64,000 nucleotides of DNA, from the NCBI GenBank assembly GCA_963744145.1, contig CAVUSO010000001.1:640001-704000 (forward strand). Reading direction: 5' to 3'. Made by a program: the position numbers and the translations under genes. The stretch's first letter is position 1. Every line of letters begins with the position of its first letter. The notes under the pieces are model-generated. The model was not told the origin of the DNA and did not search any database. It saw only the letters and a program-made list of their open reading frames with translations. Below are positions 7,291 to 64,000 of the stretch, in pieces. Origin of the DNA: an uncultured cyanobacterium. Its GTDB lineage: Bacteria; Cyanobacteriota; Cyanobacteriia; Cyanobacteriales; CAWUOF01.

Positions 7291-7414
7291 TGTCCTTCCG
7301 GATTTATTAACATAACGTCACACTTAGTATAAGGTAATACTTAATATAACTCCATAAATCACTAAGAATTTTCAGCATCGAGGAAAAATGTAATCATTGC
7401 TGGTCAAAATTTGT

Positions 7415-7930
7415 TCACTTGTCCAGGTGGGAAACATAGCTGTGGATATTTTCTAACTCAAATTGACGTAAAAGTTTTGTCGCTTGGTAAGTCAAAGCTT
7501 CGGAACCTTTGACAACGATTAGATATTTGCCAGCATTGAGACGATCGCGATAGGGTAAAGATTCAGCTCGGTTAAAGATCAAACTAACATCACCACCCAC
7601 AAATATACTACCCATGGCTCCAGCGATCGCACCAAGGACACCACCAAGTAAATGATTACCCCATTCACCAGCCCAAGCAAAAGTATCTAATTTAGTAATC
7701 AGACTAAAAGTACAGCCCGCTGCAAACCCAAACGGGACTAACCAAGTGGCCATGAATTTAGCTCTTTGACCAGCTTGGGCAAATGGGTCTACTAGACCAT
7801 ATTCATCAATATTTTGATAACCTTGACCGAGAATCGTAATTTGATTGATCGGTAGACCGGCTTGTGCCAGAGTAGAATAGACAGATTCAGCTAACAGGCG
7901 ATCGCGAAGCACAGCAACTAGATAATTCAT
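7415..7930 (-). CDS. Conserved cyanobacterial membrane protein of unknown function
   Basis: MNYLVAVL start, two Gly-rich TM segments, YRDRLNAGKYLIVVKG. Confidence 0.75.
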   Translation of the reverse strand: MNYLVAVLRDRLLAESVYSTLAQAGLPINQITILGQGYQNIDEYGLVDPFAQAGQRAKFMATWLVPFGFAAGCTFSLITKLDTFAWAGEWGNHLLGGVLGAIAGAMGSIFVGGDVSLIFNRAESLPYRDRLNAGKYLIVVKGSEALTYQATKLLRQFELENIHSYVSHLDK

Positions 7931-37100: not shown

Positions 37101-38471
37101 ATGGATGTTTACTGCACTCGTCCAGGTTGTCCAAAACCTGTTAATACCTTTGTTGATCTTGATGACAGCACCATTCTCAAGACGGTGCAGCAGAAATATT
37201 GTATCACCTGCGGGATGCCACTGATTTTAATTGGTCGTTATTTAACGATCCGACTGTTGGGACAGGGGGGATTTGGCGCTGCTTATCTAGCTCGCGATCG
37301 CTATACACCAGCCATGCGTTCCTGTGTGGTAAAAGTATTTCAACCTGCGGGTGATCTAACTCCTGATCAATTAGCGATCGCGCAAAATTTATTTGAAAGA
37401 GAAGCGACAGTTTTAGAAGAGTTGGGCAATAAAAGCTCGCAAATTCCTAATTTATTAGCTTTTTTTCCCTTAGAAGTTCCCAGTATGACTCCGGGAAAAT
37501 TAGAACAGTTTTTTTATTTAGTTCAGGAATTTATTGATGGTCAAACTTTAGAAGAAGAATTGACGAGCAAGGGCAAATTTTCGGAAGCGGAAGTTTTAGT
37601 AATGCTGAGGGAAATTCTCAATGTGCTGGAATTTGTCCACCAAAATGGTGTCATTCACCGAGATATCAAACTTTCTAATATTATGCGCGATCGGCATGGG
37701 CATTTTTATTTGTTAGATTTTGGTGCAGTCAAACAAGTAACTAAAGCTCCAGCAGTGGGGGGAAATCAAAGGTCAACTGGTATTTATTCCATGGGATTTG
37801 CACCTCCGGAACAAATGTCTGGTGGTCAAGTTTATCCTTCTACAGATTTATATGCTTTAGCGGTTACTTGTATTTGTTTACTGACTGGTAAAGAACCCAA
37901 GGAATTATTTGATTCCTATACTAATCAATGGAATTGGCGATCGCACATTCCTGGAGTGAGTGAGCAATTAGCCCAAGTGCTTGACAAAATGTTATTAAGT
38001 ACCCCCAGTCAACGCTTTGATTCTGCTGCTCAAGTACGAGATCAGCTTTTTTCTCCTGTTCCACTTATTAAACCTAATCCTTTACCTGCAACTATTGTAC
38101 AGAATGTGGCTGCTACTCCCCCAGTTTTTTCCCTGGTTAAGTTGTTAAGTGGAGCAGCATTTGTGGGTTTTGAGGGTGGTTTACTGTTTATTGCTTTGGG
38201 AAGTATATTACAATCACCTCTCATCAGTATGGGGATTTTGGGATTAGTTTTAGGTGGATTGATCTTTGCTCAATCTCGTCGGGTGATCAAAGGTAAAGAT
38301 TTACCAATAATTGCCGGAATTACTTTGGCAATTATTGTTTTTTGTCCACCTTTGCACAGTGGGTTTGAGTTAGTCTATGTGATCATTATAGCAGTTTTAG
38401 CTGGATTAGGAGCGATCGCGATTACCGCACTATTTCGATTGATTTACAATTTTCTTTCTAATATTATTTAA
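37101..38471 (+). CDS. Membrane Ser/Thr protein kinase with N-terminal 4-Cys motif
   Basis: CTRPGC...CITCG; LGQGGFG, HRDIK, DFG, APPEQ; C-terminal TM helices. Confidence 0.93.
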   Translation: MDVYCTRPGCPKPVNTFVDLDDSTILKTVQQKYCITCGMPLILIGRYLTIRLLGQGGFGAAYLARDRYTPAMRSCVVKVFQPAGDLTPDQLAIAQNLFEREATVLEELGNKSSQIPNLLAFFPLEVPSMTPGKLEQFFYLVQEFIDGQTLEEELTSKGKFSEAEVLVMLREILNVLEFVHQNGVIHRDIKLSNIMRDRHGHFYLLDFGAVKQVTKAPAVGGNQRSTGIYSMGFAPPEQMSGGQVYPSTDLYALAVTCICLLTGKEPKELFDSYTNQWNWRSHIPGVSEQLAQVLDKMLLSTPSQRFDSAAQVRDQLFSPVPLIKPNPLPATIVQNVAATPPVFSLVKLLSGAAFVGFEGGLLFIALGSILQSPLISMGILGLVLGGLIFAQSRRVIKGKDLPIIAGITLAIIVFCPPLHSGFELVYVIIIAVLAGLGAIAITALFRLIYNFLSNII

Positions 38472-57501: not shown

Positions 57502-58377
57502 TTAATTATCTTTGTTTTCAGTAAACTGTTGTTCAATTTGCCGATATTTGGGAACACCTATAAGTTGCTCGAATTCTTGGAAACTAACAAAATTTTCAAA
57601 CCCAATAGTTGTTCCCTGATCTTTTAATTGACGGAAACAAGCTGTCATAATATGAGTAGTTGCGAGTAATCCAGATAGCGGGAAAAATACGATCTTAAAA
57701 CCTAGTTGCTGTAATTCGGTAGCCGAAATTTGTGGAGTTTTTCCACCTTCAACAATATTAGCGACTAATGGTATATCGGGAAAAGCAGTCGCGATCGCTT
57801 TTAGTTCCTCAACCGATTGGGGAGCTTCGACAAAAAGTACATCTGCTCCTGCTCCTAGATAAGCTTTACCTCGACGAATTGCTTCTGTTAAACCCAAGGG
57901 GGCTCGAGCATCGGTACGACTAATAATTACCAAACCACTATCACCACGAGCTTGAACTGCTGCTTGAATTTTTCCGACTTGTTCTGTCATAGAAATAACT
58001 CGTTTACCCTCAAAATGACCGCATTTTTTTGGCCATTCTTGGTCTTCCAGAATTACTCCCGCTAATCCTAATTGTACTGCATCTTTGATAATCCGAATCA
58101 CATTTAAGGCATTACCATAACCTGTATCTAGATCCGCAATTAGAGGGATATTAATTGACTGAGCAATTCGTCCGACACTATAAAGCATTTCTGTGGCAGT
58201 CAGAAAACCATAATCGGGCAATCCTAATGTAGAAGCAGCAATTCCAAATCCACTTGTAGCTGTTACTTCAAACCCGATCTGTTCTACTAATTTAGCAGCT
58301 AAACAGTCATAAACTCCGGGAATAATCAAGATTTCAGGGCGATCGAGTAACTGTCGTAGTTTTTGGGGATGATTCAT
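57502..58377 (-). CDS. Isocitrate lyase/PEP-mutase superfamily enzyme (methylisocitrate lyase/oxaloacetate decarboxylase-like)
   Basis: GLPDYG, ADLDTGYG, EDQ.WPKKCGH, SRTDA, NIVEGGKTP. Confidence 0.9.
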   Translation of the reverse strand: MNHPQKLRQLLDRPEILIIPGVYDCLAAKLVEQIGFEVTATSGFGIAASTLGLPDYGFLTATEMLYSVGRIAQSINIPLIADLDTGYGNALNVIRIIKDAVQLGLAGVILEDQEWPKKCGHFEGKRVISMTEQVGKIQAAVQARGDSGLVIISRTDARAPLGLTEAIRRGKAYLGAGADVLFVEAPQSVEELKAIATAFPDIPLVANIVEGGKTPQISATELQQLGFKIVFFPLSGLLATTHIMTACFRQLKDQGTTIGFENFVSFQEFEQLIGVPKYRQIEQQFTENKDN

Positions 58378-58416
58378 ATATACAAAAGAACTATTGGATC
58401 TAAGTTATTAACCAAG

Positions 58417-58567
58417 TGTCAATTTGCTATTGACGAGTTGGGATACTGATGTTTTAATGATATCAAAATTTGGCGATCGCCAGCAGAAAATATCAAAAAA
58501 TATAGCTCATCTAAAGATATAATTATATAATCCGATCTTTAGATAATCTTTTTTTATTGAAAGGATT
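58417..58567 (+). repeat. Copy 1 of a ~150-bp imperfect direct repeat
   Basis: TGTCAATTTG..TTGACGAGTT.GGATA.TGATGTTTTAATGATATCAA.ATTTGGCGATCGC...GAAAATAT.AAA.AATATAGCT...TATATAATC; matches 60663-60817. Confidence 0.85.
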
Positions 58568-58645
58568 ATATATCATCGGTTGTTAGAGTGTAACCGCAGG
58601 CTAGACTGAAATTTAAAATTGGGTAACTAAGCAGGAGTGAGTAGA

Positions 58646-59710
58646 ATGGTTACAAAAATAGCCCTCTTTAATCATAAAGGTGGAGTTAGCAAGACTACAA
58701 CTACATTTAACCTTGGTTGGATACTTGCTGACAAAGGGAAAAAAGTGATTCTTGTGGATGCTGACCCACAATGTAACCTAACTGGCATGGCGTTGGGAGA
58801 GGGAACGGAGGATAATGAAGCCAGAATAGAAAAAATCTTCAATACACACTCAAATATCAAAATAGGTCTAGCGCCAGCTTTTGAATCGCAACCAAAAGCT
58901 ATTGAGGCAGTGGACTGTATTCCGATTAAAGGTCGAGAGGGATTATTTTTACTACCTGGTCATGTGGGCTTTGCAGAATATGAAGTAACCCTAGGTATTG
59001 CCCAAGAACTCAGTGCCTCAATTCAAGCTCTCAAAAATTTACCAGGTTCTATTACAGATTTGTTGGAAAAAACTGCCAAGAAGTTTGATGCGGATTACAT
59101 ATTGATTGATATGAGTCCAAGTTTGGGAGCAATCAACCAGAATTTATTGATGACTAGCGACTTTTTTATAGTGCCGACGACTGCTGATTTCTTTTCCGTA
59201 ATGGCAATTGATTCTTTAGCAAAAGTATTGCCAAAATGGTATGCCTGGGCAAAGGCAGCTAGTTCACTTCCAATCCTGAAAGATGCTGCCTATCCATTTC
59301 CTGATGTCACTCTGCGCTTTTTAGGGATTATTATTCAGAATTACCGAATCATTGGTGGCAAAGAAACTGCTGCTTTTGAAACTTGGATTCAGAAAATAGA
59401 GGAAAATGTTTCCTCTAAATTGGTGCCAATTCTACGTGAGCATAATATGATGCTGCCCAATCAAGTTTATGACCAACAGGGTATTAATCAAAATTTTTGT
59501 CTAACAAAAATTTCCAACTTTAATAGCCTAATTCCGCGCTCTCAAGAGTATGGAACTCCAATTTACGATCTGACCCCTCAGCAATTAGGGCAGGTAGGAA
59601 AAGTATTGGAAAATAACCAGAAAAAGCAAGCTGAGTTTCGAGAGATATTTTCAGACCTTGCAGATAAAATTATCGGATTAACATCTGCTGCCTATGCTGT
59701 CTGCGCTTAA
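58646..59710 (+). CDS. ParA/Soj-like ATPase, orphan conflict-system type
   Basis: NHKGGVSKTTT deviant Walker A, VDADPQCNLT, IDMSPSLG; AGGAG RBS before ATG 58646; no parB. Confidence 0.9.
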   Translation: MVTKIALFNHKGGVSKTTTTFNLGWILADKGKKVILVDADPQCNLTGMALGEGTEDNEARIEKIFNTHSNIKIGLAPAFESQPKAIEAVDCIPIKGREGLFLLPGHVGFAEYEVTLGIAQELSASIQALKNLPGSITDLLEKTAKKFDADYILIDMSPSLGAINQNLLMTSDFFIVPTTADFFSVMAIDSLAKVLPKWYAWAKAASSLPILKDAAYPFPDVTLRFLGIIIQNYRIIGGKETAAFETWIQKIEENVSSKLVPILREHNMMLPNQVYDQQGINQNFCLTKISNFNSLIPRSQEYGTPIYDLTPQQLGQVGKVLENNQKKQAEFREIFSDLADKIIGLTSAAYAVCA

Positions 59711-60443
59711 TCAATTCCAAATCAGTATTGCTCGTGTTCGAGACTTGATTTCTATTCATAATTCTGTCAAAGCTCAGTCTACTCCGGTCTTAGATTTGTC
59801 AGATATTTTGAGAGCTGCTTTAGTTCTGGCGGTGAGTGCTTTGGATTATTATGTGCATGAAGTTGTAATATTAGGAATAATAGAGATTCATAGAGGACAA
59901 CGTTCTGAGCCTAATCCTCCGCCCAACAGTTCTCAATCCGCATTTTCTCGTTTTCAAGTTTCATTGGGTGGCGCAAGACAAGAAAGATTAATAGCTATAG
60001 ATATTGCTTCTTGGCTAGAGAATGAAATCCAACAAAGTCAAGGTTACTCATTTTTACAACAGTCCTATACAGTCTCAGCTTTACTTCCATTGATATCAAG
60101 TAGTATTCACAACAGATTAAACAATACCTCTTGGCTAGAAGATGAAGTTCGCGATCGCCTTGGATACCAGAGTTTTCAGCAACCGGAAAAAATAGCTGAT
60201 GCGATTAGGCTGATTTCAGATCAGAAATTGTGGGATGAGGTGGCAGTGAAACTGGGCAAATCTGCAAAAGATGTTAAGCAACAACTCAGTGTAATTGTTG
60301 ATCGAAGAAACAAAATTGCCCATGAAGCTGATATAGATCCGACTTTTGGGATCGGAAATCGTTGGAACATTGATGAAAGTCAAGTTAACGATGCAGTTAA
60401 TTTTATTGAGCAAGTTGTTGAGAGCATTCATCAAGTTATTTAA
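59694..60443 (+). CDS. HEPN-domain protein (RiboL-PSP-HEPN-like)
   Basis: RAALVLAVSALDYYVHE and RRNKIAHEAD (RxxxxH); overlaps the ParA stop codon. Confidence 0.82.
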   Translation: MLSALNQFQISIARVRDLISIHNSVKAQSTPVLDLSDILRAALVLAVSALDYYVHEVVILGIIEIHRGQRSEPNPPPNSSQSAFSRFQVSLGGARQERLIAIDIASWLENEIQQSQGYSFLQQSYTVSALLPLISSSIHNRLNNTSWLEDEVRDRLGYQSFQQPEKIADAIRLISDQKLWDEVAVKLGKSAKDVKQQLSVIVDRRNKIAHEADIDPTFGIGNRWNIDESQVNDAVNFIEQVVESIHQVI

Positions 60444-60662
60444 GTGTATATGCAAATAATCTAAGCCGTCGATGGAGTGGATAAACAGAAGATATTGGTG
60501 GGGATACAAAAGTTATCTACCGATGGTGACTTGCTTTCCGAATGGCGGTTGAAACGCAAGAGGAACATATTACTGAAACTGTGAATTCTGGATCAGACGA
60601 AATTGATTAGGGTAGGGTGGCAACTTCTGGACTTTCTTTGGTGGTTGCGGTGGGTATTCTGT

Positions 60663-60817
60663 TGTCAATTTGGTCTTGACGAGTTTGGATAATGATGTTT
60701 TAATGATATCAAGATTTGGCGATCGCTCAAAGAAAATATTAAAGAATATAGCTGGCAGATAAATCATATTTATATAATCTTTTTTTTTATATAATCTTTT
60801 TATATTTAAAGAAGATT
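60663..60817 (+). repeat. Copy 2 of the ~150-bp direct repeat
   Basis: Aligns with 58417-58567 at an offset of 2246 bp. Confidence 0.85.
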
Positions 60818-61107
60818 CAAAAATGAGGATAGAAACTGCTATATTAAGAAATGTTGAAGAATTGTCTAAATCTGTCAAATAGGCAGTTTTTAACTATACA
60901 AATCTTAGAAAGGATATCAAGTGTATGGGGCGACTCTAGAAATAGCTGAAATGCCTTCTGTATAATGATTTTGGTGAAACCTGTGGAAAAGCGTAAATTT
61001 ACCGATTAAATACTTGCGGTTTTATGTGTTGCAATGATATGTGAAATTGTCCTTGCTCTACAATTAATAGTTAGACTCTAATTTCAGGAAAGTTTAGTGA
61101 AAAATTT

Positions 61108-62220
61108 ATGAACACATCCTCACATATTTTAAAGCTAATTATGTCAGGCAACATAAATGTTCCGGCAATGATTAACGCTATTATTCGAGCGACGCTTGAA
61201 GCCAGAGAAAACGCTAAAGACCCTAGTTTAATATTCCGTCAAATACATATTTTTCATACAGAGCAATCTCTACAAGCTATGATGGCAAAGTCTAATTCTT
61301 GGCAGTCGGACATTGACTGTCTAACTCAAAGTTTAACAGCGTTATTACCAGTTGGCTTTGATTTAGAGCATCTACAAACTTCTCTACTCTCTGGAATTAA
61401 CTCACGATTATTGGGAGAAGTGACAGGAGAATCATATAATTATCGCCATTCTGTATTTTCATCCTCGGCTGGTGTTGAAGAAATGGCAAATATTCTACTC
61501 AGCATTATACAAGGTGCTGATCTAGAAAATAAAACTCTTGGAAACAAACTTAATGATATATATAGTTTTGCTAAAAATAATCCTAAATATTTTATTAATA
61601 CAAAAGTTTTAGAACATCTTAATCGTTGAATAGCAGAAGTTCGTAATGATGTGGTACACCCAACATCTGGAATTGAAAGAGACAAAGAAACAACAGCAAT
61701 TCAGTCATATCTTTCATCACAGCTTTCTGTTGCTTTTCTTCAGTTTACCATCAAGGCATTGTCTGTTTTCTTGGATGAGCAAGGAAAACTTCTTGATGTT
61801 TTGGTACTTGAAGCAGCAGAAGATGATCAAAGTTTATTTTATTTTGGGTTTGATGGAGATGCCACGGGAGATTATTTGGAAATAGCTTTTGGCGATTTAG
61901 CTCAAGATGAGTCTGAAGTTTTGAGTAGAAGTGAAAAACTTCGAGAAGCAATCAAAAAATTAAAGACTGTAATATTTAAAGAAACAAAAAATAATAAGTC
62001 TGTTCTTTTTGCTGAAGGTGACAACATATTATTTAAAGCCCCATATAACCAAGCTTTACTAAATAAATTACAACAAATTTATACTGATGAAACAGGTCTC
62101 AATTGCAGTATTGGTTATGGAAGTACGTTACGAGAAGCTGCGATAGCTATGCGGCTAGCAAAGGGAAAAGAAGGCAATAGTATCGTTGGTGTGGCAGTGA
62201 AAAGTAATTACACGGAGTAA
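61108..62220 (+). pseudogene. CARF-like + HEPN + mCpol (minimal CRISPR polymerase) gene interrupted by one in-frame TGA at 61627-61629
   Basis: The two ORFs share a frame: ...EHLNR*IAEVRNDVVHP; mCpol motifs YFGFDGDATGDYLE, FAEGDNILF, CSIGYG.TLREA..A.RLAK. Confidence 0.75.
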
Positions 62221-62508
62221 TCCTAATTTCTGGCAAAGCTGGTTTAACAAGCAATACATTTAGAATTATTCTAGCGTTGCACGCACTGAATATGTCAACC
62301 ATTAGACAAACACATGATTGCTATAGGATAGCGATCGCCCACAGCTACTCCTGGTGGTAGCATTTGATCTATATATGCCAATTCATCTGTTGTCAGTTCT
62401 ATGTCAACACTTTTGACATTTCATTGCTGCAAACCAAAGATACCCGATTTCTAGGATTACTCAATTGTTGTTCTCATCATCTATTTTAGAGCAACTTACT
62501 AAGATTTC

Positions 62509-63020
62509 TCAGGTTTTAGCAGCCATACTCACTTTTTCCTTTCGCCATTTTTCTGCACTTTGTTTAACCGCTTCTATTTCCTCAAAATCTACCCGGATCA
62601 CAGCCGTTTCAAATTCTACACCCAAAACTGTGCTAACTTCGAGTATTTCTACAAAACTTGCACATTGGTAATCTGTATCCTCATACTGCCTAACTTGCTT
62701 TTCTTCAATTCCTAGTATCTGAGCTAGTTCTTGCTGACTGATTTTGGCTGCTATCCTAGCTTTAATTAAAGCATCTGGCAACTTATTTATGCTCTCAACT
62801 TTAATGTGAATTGGCTGAGTTGTATCACAATTAATCATTTTTTATATTCAGCAATTTCTGACTTTAATTCGTCAACTTGACTTTGATACGAGTCTCGATG
62901 AAGTTGCCAACGCAGTTGGTCAGCTTTCAAGTTTTCATTATTATCTAATTCCGCTACAGACTTTTCAAATCGCTGTAACCAATCTAAAGAGTTCTGGTAT
63001 TGTTGCTCATTTTTTATCAT
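62509..63020 (-). CDS. XRE-HTH antitoxin-like protein; one-base deletion near 62840 splits it
   Basis: MIKNEQQYQ N-terminus plus LIKARIAAKISQQELA..LG....QV.QYE HTH. Confidence 0.78.
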
Positions 63021-63187
63021 GGGTCCCACCTTTGTAAATCTATTGCAATAATTCCTTTGCGTGTATTTTTCATTGGATCAAATTGAAAAAAGTCTATGTA
63101 AGTTATACCCGCGTCATTAGCTGGGTAATTGGATGGAAAAAACTCCCCCCTGTATTTATTTTTTTGTTCCCCAAGTCGCAGACCCCG
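63017..63187 (-). pseudogene. 3' remnant of a putative nucleotidyltransferase-like toxin gene (DUF6932-like)
   Basis: LRLGEQKNKYRGEFFPSNYPA...YIDFFQFD...KGIIAIDL..WDP*; ATGA overlap with the HTH gene; no start codon or N-terminus. Confidence 0.55.
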
Positions 63188-63197
63188 TTAGCTAGAC

Positions 63198-64000
63198 CTA
63201 TCTATGATGAATAGGTATCTCGATCGCTATCTCCGTGCCCTTTCCAATGGTTGAATTACAGGTTAATTGACCGTCATGTTTTTTGATAATAGCATAGCTG
63301 ACTGATAAACCTAACCCTGTGCCACTTCCCACAGCTTTAGTGGTAAAGAATGGATCAAATATACGGGATTGAATCTCTGGAGGAATACCCATCCCATTAT
63401 CCGCGATCGCAATTCTGACTCGGTCTTTTCCGATTACCTCAGTCTGAATCCGAATTAACGGATCTTTACCAGGTTGACTAATTTCTTCGATCGCATCAAT
63501 CCCATTACTGATAATATTTAGAAATACTTGATTTAACTGACTAGCATAACAAGTGACATTCGGCAAGTCTCCATACTCTTTAATAACTTGGATTGCTGGT
63601 CGTCCACCATCGCGGTTTAAGCGGTTTTGTAAAATTAGTAAAGTGCTATCAATCCCGGAATGTAAATCTACCTCTTTCATCTCCGATTCATCTAAGCGGG
63701 AAAAATTTCGCAAACTCAGGATAATTTGGCTAATGCGATCGCTTCCTGCTTTCATTGATTGAAGAATATTAGTTGCATCTGACCAGATAAATTCGAGTTC
63801 AATTTCTTGGATTTTGGCTTGAATTACTGGATTGGTTTCTGGATATTCCTGCTGATAAAGCTCTAGTAAACTTAGCAAATTCTTGATATAATTTTCCGTA
63901 TGTTTAATATTCCCACTAATAAACGTCACTGGATTGTTAATTTCATGAGCTATCCCCGCTACCAATTGACCCAAAGATGACATCTTCTCACTCTGAATTA
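63198..64000 (-). CDS. Sensor histidine kinase, C-terminal part; begins beyond the window
   Basis: QSEKMSSLGQLVAGIAHEINNP, QLNQVFLN, DNGMGI, FDPFFTTK, GTGLGL. Confidence 0.93.
   Translation of the reverse strand, partial: IQSEKMSSLGQLVAGIAHEINNPVTFISGNIKHTENYIKNLLSLLELYQQEYPETNPVIQAKIQEIELEFIWSDATNILQSMKAGSDRISQIILSLRNFSRLDESEMKEVDLHSGIDSTLLILQNRLNRDGGRPAIQVIKEYGDLPNVTCYASQLNQVFLNIISNGIDAIEEISQPGKDPLIRIQTEVIGKDRVRIAIADNGMGIPPEIQSRIFDPFFTTKAVGSGTGLGLSVSYAIIKKHDGQLTCNSTIGKGTEIAIEIPIHHR

Follow-up and report, generated by a model that had tools for sequence, protein, structure and literature searches.

A very probable recent pseudogene of the stand-alone CARF-HEPN-mCpol family in an uncultured cyanobacterium

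Fusions of mCpol, a minimal CRISPR polymerase that resembles the palm domain of Cas10, to a ribonuclease (RNase) of the Csx1 family are described by Makarova et al. 2020, as cited in PMC13577387, and the Introduction of the latter paper treats such a fusion as a potential single-protein defence. Here we analyse a gene of this kind at positions 61108-62220 of the plus strand in a stretch of 64,000 nucleotides from an uncultured cyanobacterium; throughout, the window means this whole stretch. The gene shares its family, its domain order and its stand-alone setting with the CARF-HEPN-mCpol fusions catalogued by PADLOC (PDLC01967). Unlike a working member, however, it lacks positions 1-179 of the family profile except for an N-terminal stub of 66 residues, and it has a TGA inside its HEPN part. 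We conclude that it is very probably a pseudogene of the stand-alone CARF-HEPN-mCpol family that was inactivated recently.

The same synthase domain is used by the Panoptes systems. In type I, OptS signals constitutively and represses OptE, a 2TM-beta effector, according to PMC12657218; according to its sections 6 and 8, two protomers of KpOptS together form the binding pocket, and the enzyme relies on Asp6 and Asp57. In type II, as described in PMC13577387, a cyanobacterial mCpol makes cA3 and is paired with a CARF sensor, the CARF-TM partner, which is toxic without mCpol. Panoptes is thus built from two genes with a membrane effector, whereas the family studied here has synthase, sensor and soluble RNase in one chain. 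No separate membrane effector (2TM-beta or CARF-TM) was found among the neighbours of the window gene, which is accordingly not placed in Panoptes.

Csm6 and Csx1 of type III CRISPR share the RxxxxH RNase motif with the family and are the best structural matches of a full-length homolog, but they receive their signal from a Cas10 complex, while in the present family the signal source is fused in cis. At the sequence level the PDB profile search gave no Csm6/Csx1 match, and the NCBIfam Csm6 model reached just E 0.12. No cas genes were found either among the neighbours or in the 38 other open reading frames (ORFs) that were scanned in the window, and the gene is not assigned to the Csm6/Csx1 of a type III CRISPR system.

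Intact members are single proteins of about 500 residues with an N-terminal CARF sensor, a helical HEPN RNase carrying RNxxxH, and a C-terminal mCpol that would make a cyclic nucleotide. In such a protein the mCpol domains of a homodimer would make cyclic oligoadenylate, and the protein's own CARF domain would bind it and in this way control how active the HEPN RNase is. If the two Panoptes types are a guide, the signal may be constitutive and hold the RNase off, and the RNase would be set free when a phage sponge or a ring nuclease takes the signal away. The copy in the window departs from this scheme twice, by an in-frame deletion in CARF and by a Leu-to-TGA nonsense change four codons before the RNase motif.

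Reading frame and family assignment

According to the ORF listing and the translation, the locus is a single frame of 370 codons in which TGA 61627-61629 is the sole internal stop. All features described below are on the plus strand. The stop divides the frame into ORF1 (61108-61629, 173 residues) and ORF2 (61651-62220, 189 residues), the latter listed from GTG 61651, which is 21 nt past the TGA and within the motif RNDVVH. Behind the TGA come the codons ATA GCA GAA GTT (IAEV) and then CGT AAT GAT GTG GTA CAC, that is RNDVVH at 61642-61659, so that the TGA is the fifth codon upstream of the Arg with four sense codons between. The locus thus holds ORFs of 173 and 189 residues and not the single uninterrupted ORF of about 500 residues (496-512) of intact loci.

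For the profile searches the whole frame was translated with the stop written as X (P0001, 370 residues). The PADLOC profile PDLC01967 (CARF_HEPN_mCpol) matches this product with E 3.4e-128, where residues 69-364 correspond to positions 180-470 of the 471 in the profile. ORF1 alone matches the same profile with E 7.2e-54 (residues 69-172 on positions 180-283). The match crosses the stop, and ORF1 and ORF2 are therefore pieces of one gene. A sequence-only reading made earlier had taken the two ORFs as one frame, placed the TGA five codons before RNDVVH and proposed synthase, sensor and RNase in one protein; the translation and the profile matching both sides of the stop agree with the first of these claims, the codon count with the second, and the name of the profile itself with the third.

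The mCpol domain (61840-62190) lies in the half downstream of the stop and is intact. Pfam PF18182 places it at residues 245-361 with 100.7 bits, where 26.4 would suffice (E 8.5e-29), and it is also found by NCBIfam NF033576 (E 1.2e-14, 54.9 bits against a cut-off of 40), so that the earlier assignment to mCpol stands on two models above their cut-offs. The DGD and GD motifs named by the same reading are present as well, at 61852-61860 (DGD) and 62014-62025 (EGDN). These acidic residues of the palm, D249-G250-D251 and E303-G304-D305-N306, are invariant in an alignment of the window protein with 11 full-length members (alignment A1). By motif position and fold match they would be the counterparts of the catalytic Asp6 and Asp57 given for KpOptS in PMC12657218.

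The HEPN-like region is split by the TGA. Its first helical part, residues 69-173 (61312-61626), is recognised by the PADLOC match and a structure model; it ends at the stop and is without an RxxxxH of its own. The second part, residues 175-243 (61630-61836), contains a long last helix in the model. RNDVVH had been taken for the HEPN RxxxxH motif, and this is upheld by the homologs: 63 full-length sequences all have the R, N and H of RNxxxH (R311, N312 and H316 in the homolog P0002). Neither ORF of the locus carries the HEPN helical domain together with RxxxxH; about 105 residues of the domain come before the TGA, and the motif comes after it.

A search of a collection of 5.8 billion proteins returned 83 homologs, most of 495-545 residues; Cyanobacteria, Nitrospirota and Chloroflexota are among their sources. 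When 1.84 billion representatives were searched with a profile, there were 66 proteins at E <= 1e-30, 116 at E <= 1e-10 and 370 at E <= 1e-3, and the weaker matches were mostly free mCpols of about 120-130 residues. Broken copies occur among the representatives as well; in P0153, for instance, the tail is the FGFDGDD motif in the wrong frame. Over aligned columns, P0002 (508 residues) shares 78.0% identity with the window protein and P0003 (503 residues) 77.2%, and between these two it is 72.4%.

The fold of the family was studied on an AlphaFold2 model of P0002, made from an alignment of 63 rows and with a mean pLDDT of 84.8. The model consists of an N-terminal domain with six strands alternating with helices, six further helices, and a palm-like C-terminal domain. 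In a Foldseek search against the PDB, the Csm6 structures 8pe3, 6tug and 5fsh match it with E 1.2e-7 to 6e-6 over about 410-440 columns; with Csx1 (6qzt) and Csx1-Crn2 (8y6z), which are matched too, the Csm6/Csx1 set spans E 1.2e-07 to 6.6e-05 and about 410-565 columns. The CARF-only structures of Sso2081, Cad1-CARF and Cam1 match with TM scores by target of 0.50-0.58. Panoptes OptS (9mnr, 9pd0) reaches 0.76-0.80 at an rmsd of 2.7-3.0 A and 24-25% identity, and Cas10 subunits are among the matches. The N-terminal region of the window protein had been called CARF-like only tentatively, and the corresponding domain of the full-length homolog does fold like the CARF of Csm6, of ring nucleases and of Cad1.

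A model of the window region 61312-61836, with X at the stop, is all-helical with seven helices (pLDDT 88). Its best PDB matches are the HEPN proteins 7ae6, 2hsb, 5yep and 1o3u, with TM scores by target of 0.55-0.67. Together with the invariant R, N and H and with the likeness of the homolog to Csm6, this fold ranking points to HEPN as the probable identity of the helical part.

Two further computations were uninformative. A sequence search of PDB chains with the A1 profile returned a designed repeat protein (E 1.8e-4, on weak repeated stretches) and an alanine racemase (E 1.6). A homodimer prediction for ORF2 (2 x 189 residues, alignment A4) gave a median of 0.29 against a mark of 0.42; it was run without controls and counts neither way.

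The deletion, the nonsense codon and their age

In alignment A1 the window protein follows the N-termini of the homologs for its first 68 residues, columns 69-208 are gapped, and the remainder aligns to the end. A tblastn search of the window with P0002 finds residues 1-66 at 61108-61305 (77% identity) and residues 201-500 at 61312-62208 (window residues 69-367), both in frame 1. Between them are only the two codons of the junction, S67 and D68 (61306-61311), where about 132-134 residues are gone with the frame kept. Both comparisons indicate an in-frame loss of some 132-134 internal residues, roughly 400 bp, from the copy in the window, and they confirm the earlier suspicion that the short N-terminus carries a deletion. 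Further pieces of P0002 were not found in the 64-kb window at E <= 1e-5; a relocation of the missing CARF piece within the window was considered and rejected, as the search gave just the two segments named.

The deletion removes most of the sensor. On the P0002 model the remnant of residues 1-66 covers strand 1, helix 1, strand 2 and helix 2 (E7-13, H18-36, E45-50 and H52-60). Deleted are four of the six CARF strands (E79-83, E111-116, E139-146 and E171-176) with their helices. Helix 185-209, which comes first behind the CARF domain, has lost 16 of its 25 residues. The deleted stretch includes a nearly invariant D116...G120 (DLTGG), which may resemble the CARF motif DxTHG. The Rossmann-like N-terminal CARF domain, six-stranded in P0002, is therefore present in the window as residues 1-66 only. 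This loss alone should disable ligand control, and a repair of the stop codon on its own would therefore not bring the module back. The TGA had been regarded as the only break of the reading frame; it is indeed the sole in-frame stop, but the CARF deletion is a second lesion and probably the main one.

The column of the TGA is Leu in all 11 aligned full-length homologs. In the genome loci described below, the 14 readable codons at this column likewise all encode Leu (TTA in 6, CTA in 6 and TTG in 2), and TTA is one transversion away from TGA. TGA also terminates 3 of the 29 long ORFs of the window and is therefore read as a stop in this genome. TGA 61627-61629 is a plain nonsense mutation at a conserved Leu, with no sign of recoding. 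A recoding as selenocysteine or Trp was considered and ruled out: the homologs have Leu, TGA is an ordinary stop here, and other members of the family are broken by TAA codons, frameshifts and insertions.

These observations also bear on the possibility that a leaky TGA is read through, yielding an active HEPN-mCpol protein without CARF, for instance an RNase that is unregulated or differently regulated. Of the stop codons TGA is generally the one most prone to leak, the deletion is in frame, and RNDVVH and the mCpol motifs are intact, all of which would suit such a product. However, the deletion does not follow a domain border, since its ends lie inside helices H64-70 and H185-209 of the model of P0002. 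The site is Leu and not Cys or Trp in the homologs and is without a recoding sign, and the TAA codons, frameshifts and insertions in other members are decay and not a programmed stop. A change of frame at the junction in a second record, P0086, uncouples the N-terminus there too. We regard read-through to an active protein as very unlikely.

P0086 comes from a search of shorter proteins, which also returned P0085, the window's own ORF2 of 189 residues on a contig of 7.63 Mb. P0086 has 109 residues and is 100% identical to the window over the shared part. It reads MAVG and then IDCLTQ...EHLNR, with the same stop and the same deletion junction as the window. The MAVG is the neighbouring-frame reading of ...TTGGCAGTCGG... 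in the window, and P0086 and the window therefore differ by an indel of 1 nt at the junction (window 61299-61311), which leaves the N-terminal stub out of frame in P0086. Since both the junction and the stop are common to P0086, an error private to the window assembly is unlikely, with the reservation that P0086 is possibly not independent of the window's strain. The lesions thus look inherited.

An assembly or sequencing artefact that hides a whole gene is accordingly very unlikely: besides the identical stop and junction in P0086, the window's ORF2 lies on that contig of 7.63 Mb, and a clean loss of about 400 bp combined with a base substitution is atypical of assembly error.

Apart from its two lesions the gene has hardly changed. 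At the columns that are invariant in the other 11 sequences, the window protein keeps 87 of 88, the stop aside; the sole change is T to N two codons before the stop. The other sequences deviate at 0-8 such columns. Further, the window protein is no more distant from the outgroup P0004 than its sisters are (65.8% identity, compared with 63.2% for P0002 and 65.4% for P0003), and its identity to P0002 is 80% before the stop and 81% and 76% after it. The sequence has barely decayed, indicating that the lesions are recent.

In summary of the effect on function, neither half of the gene should be able to sense a ligand or to cut RNA, and only mCpol is left whole. As sensing and RNA cleavage are structurally disabled, we rate the copy a very probable pseudogene.

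Decay in the family and a possible free mCpol

To see the gene among its relatives we scanned a GTDB set in which each species is represented by one genome. This gave 19 loci; 18 of them are assessable, and L019 is at a contig end. None of the 19 is above 60% identity to the window, though the window contains both search patterns: either the window's species is not represented in the genome set, or its representative is without the gene.

Ten of the assessable loci (L001-L006, L009, L011, L017 and L018), among them those of Kamptonema sp. UHCC 0994 (L009) and Microcoleus vaginatus HSN003 (L018), hold a whole ORF of 496-512 residues, so that the homologs are not two genes, an outcome that would have spoken against the sequence-only reading. 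The other eight are broken, by nonsense codons, frameshifts, deletions and small insertions. In L007 (Dapis) the frame is interrupted twice by TAA and FDGD has become FDCD. The frame of L008 (Lyngbya aestuarii) shifts near residue 446, and that of L016 (a metagenome-assembled genome of Chloroflexi) is stopped by a TAA at codon 356. In L010 (Okeania sp. SIO3B5) an AT-rich insertion of about 131 nt stands before the last 30 codons, and L012 and L013 (Okeania) contain multiple frameshifts and insertions (about 100-220 nt), one of them common to both. L014 (Coleofasciculus) has lost residues ~181-313 with a change of frame, and of L015 (Brasilonema) only residues ~320-498 remain. The insertion of L010, at 7402-7532 of that locus, contains TAATAAT repeats and an inverted repeat and looks like a miniature mobile element.

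In the five syntenic loci of Okeania and Dapis an upstream gene of 679-682 residues is whole in 5/5, while the mCpol gene is whole in 1/5; poor assembly is therefore not the cause of the breaks. Eight broken copies in 18, broken in different ways, look like recurrent gene loss. No neighbour gene is conserved across the genome loci outside this one syntenic genus group, which fits a stand-alone gene.

The distribution of the lesions was also tried as a test of the Panoptes logic. The CARF-HEPN part, about 71% of the length, is hit in 7 of 9 broken copies, which is no departure from chance.

A different explanation of the window copy, which the sequence-only reading had named beside an inactivation that removes toxicity, is a functional split. 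Ribosomes would start anew at GTG 61651 or at a TTG or GTG further on and make a free mCpol with the last HEPN helix, and its cyclic nucleotide could feed or guard other sensors elsewhere in the genome. The retained DGD and EGDN in a whole domain, the GTG start so soon after the stop and the presence of ORF2 as a protein of 189 residues in the collection are what this would lead one to expect. Open C-terminal ORFs that bear mCpol are also seen in Coleofasciculus (P0089, 172 residues) and Brasilonema (P0095, 149 residues), and the Panoptes mCpol enzymes of about 14 kDa are active alone according to section 6 of PMC12657218. On the other hand, inspection of the sequence shows no clear Shine-Dalgarno before GTG 61651, and a promoter and terminator scan of 60300-62700 is not above shuffles (13 promoter-like sites against 9.4 +/- 2.4). 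PADLOC finds no CARF, SAVED or Cas10 among the 38 other ORFs of the window, nor is there one among the immediate neighbours. The part upstream of the stop is as conserved towards P0002 as the part downstream, which is unexpected if only ORF2 were under selection. Finally, there is no preferential sparing of mCpol: among ten broken copies (the window, the eight loci and P0050) it is spared in about half, namely in the window, L014, L015, L016 and P0050, and damaged in L007, L008, L010, L012 and L013. We consider a functional split unlikely.

Some of our results nevertheless weigh against a pseudogene or against parts of that conclusion. The GTG 21 nt past the stop makes re-initiation conceivable. 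The deletion is in frame, for which the chance is one in three, and mCpol is whole with its acidic motifs. The low degree of decay would also fit, as an alternative to recent lesions, a full length that is still constrained and a product that is in use. Regarding HEPN, none of the Pfam HEPN models matches the window protein at E <= 1, and the E values of the helical part against the PDB are weak (0.04-0.4), none reaching 0.001. In the literature searched, the CARF-HEPN-mCpol fusion is a matter of prediction, with no experimental study found, and the mechanism and the sign of regulation given above are therefore what we infer; section 12 of PMC12657218 leaves it open whether signals of HEPN-linked mCpols repress or activate. 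Taking these points into account, a recently inactivated pseudogene is still the reading that we hold to be very probable.

Surroundings of the pseudogene and meaning for the family

The pseudogene lies in a small patch of conflict-type genes amid metabolic genes (PEP mutase family, DUF1838, MFS transporter). Upstream of it is a ParA-like ATPase at 58637-59710 (plus strand, Pfam AAA_31, E 1.6e-31), whose gene overlaps by 17 nt with that of a HEPN protein of the RiboL-PSP type at 59694-60443 (plus strand, 249 residues, RNKIAH, PF18735, E 4.6e-15). The pair resembles the candidate ParA-effector immune systems with ParA and HEPN of a 2026 bioRxiv preprint (10.64898/2026.10.19.760177); it was not found beside mCpol genes at other loci. 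Between this pair and the pseudogene is an AT-rich spacer of 660 bp (60444-61107, 32-34% G+C). Around 60770-60800 the spacer holds a near-tandem repeat of TTATATAATCTTTTT, and on its minus strand there is an unsupported ORF of 102 residues (60570-60878) that has no Pfam match.

Downstream, an ORF of 64 residues (62835-63029, minus strand) overlaps by 4 nt with a protein of 109 residues similar to HTH_3 (62509-62838), whose E of 1.1e-4 falls narrowly short of the Pfam cut-off. The layout of 62509-63029 on the minus strand looks like a toxin-antitoxin pair or a pair of small regulators. A histidine kinase gene comes next. Far from the pseudogene, at 37101-38471 on the plus strand, a protein of 456 residues similar to Ser/Thr kinases matches PADLOC PD-T4-6 (E 7.9e-87); it may be an ordinary cyanobacterial kinase. 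An Rfam scan of 58000-64000 gave two matches at the level of chance only (E 0.62 and 0.94).

The window as a whole has 39% G+C and 64 HIP1 octamers, as expected of a filamentous cyanobacterium. The gene itself has 31-36% G+C, which is a weak hint at most of foreign origin.

For annotation, our results mean that the two ORFs, labelled as hypothetical or as mCpol domain, should be merged and flagged as one pseudogene. The CARF-HEPN-mCpol protein is the simplest cyclic-nucleotide immune pathway that can be imagined, with synthase, sensor and effector in one protein. The copy in the window is no working example of it; it is a clean and recent natural knock-out of an already catalogued family.

The window copy and the many broken copies hint that the CARF-HEPN-mCpol module is expensive to keep. 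A bolder idea, which we think unlikely, is that the module is intrinsically costly and has been disarmed repeatedly by filamentous cyanobacteria. It is based on the eight broken loci in 18 and the window, in which the lesions are of no fewer than seven separate kinds, and on flanking genes that are whole. By analogy with the Panoptes logic, the CARF core may here have been lost first, which would free the RNase from the repressing signal, and the nonsense codon before RxxxxH would then have been a rescue. What remains may be an orphan mCpol, translated from GTG 61651, that makes a decoy cyclic nucleotide. If this is true, the natural pattern of lesions could reveal the sign of regulation in the CARF-HEPN-mCpol family.

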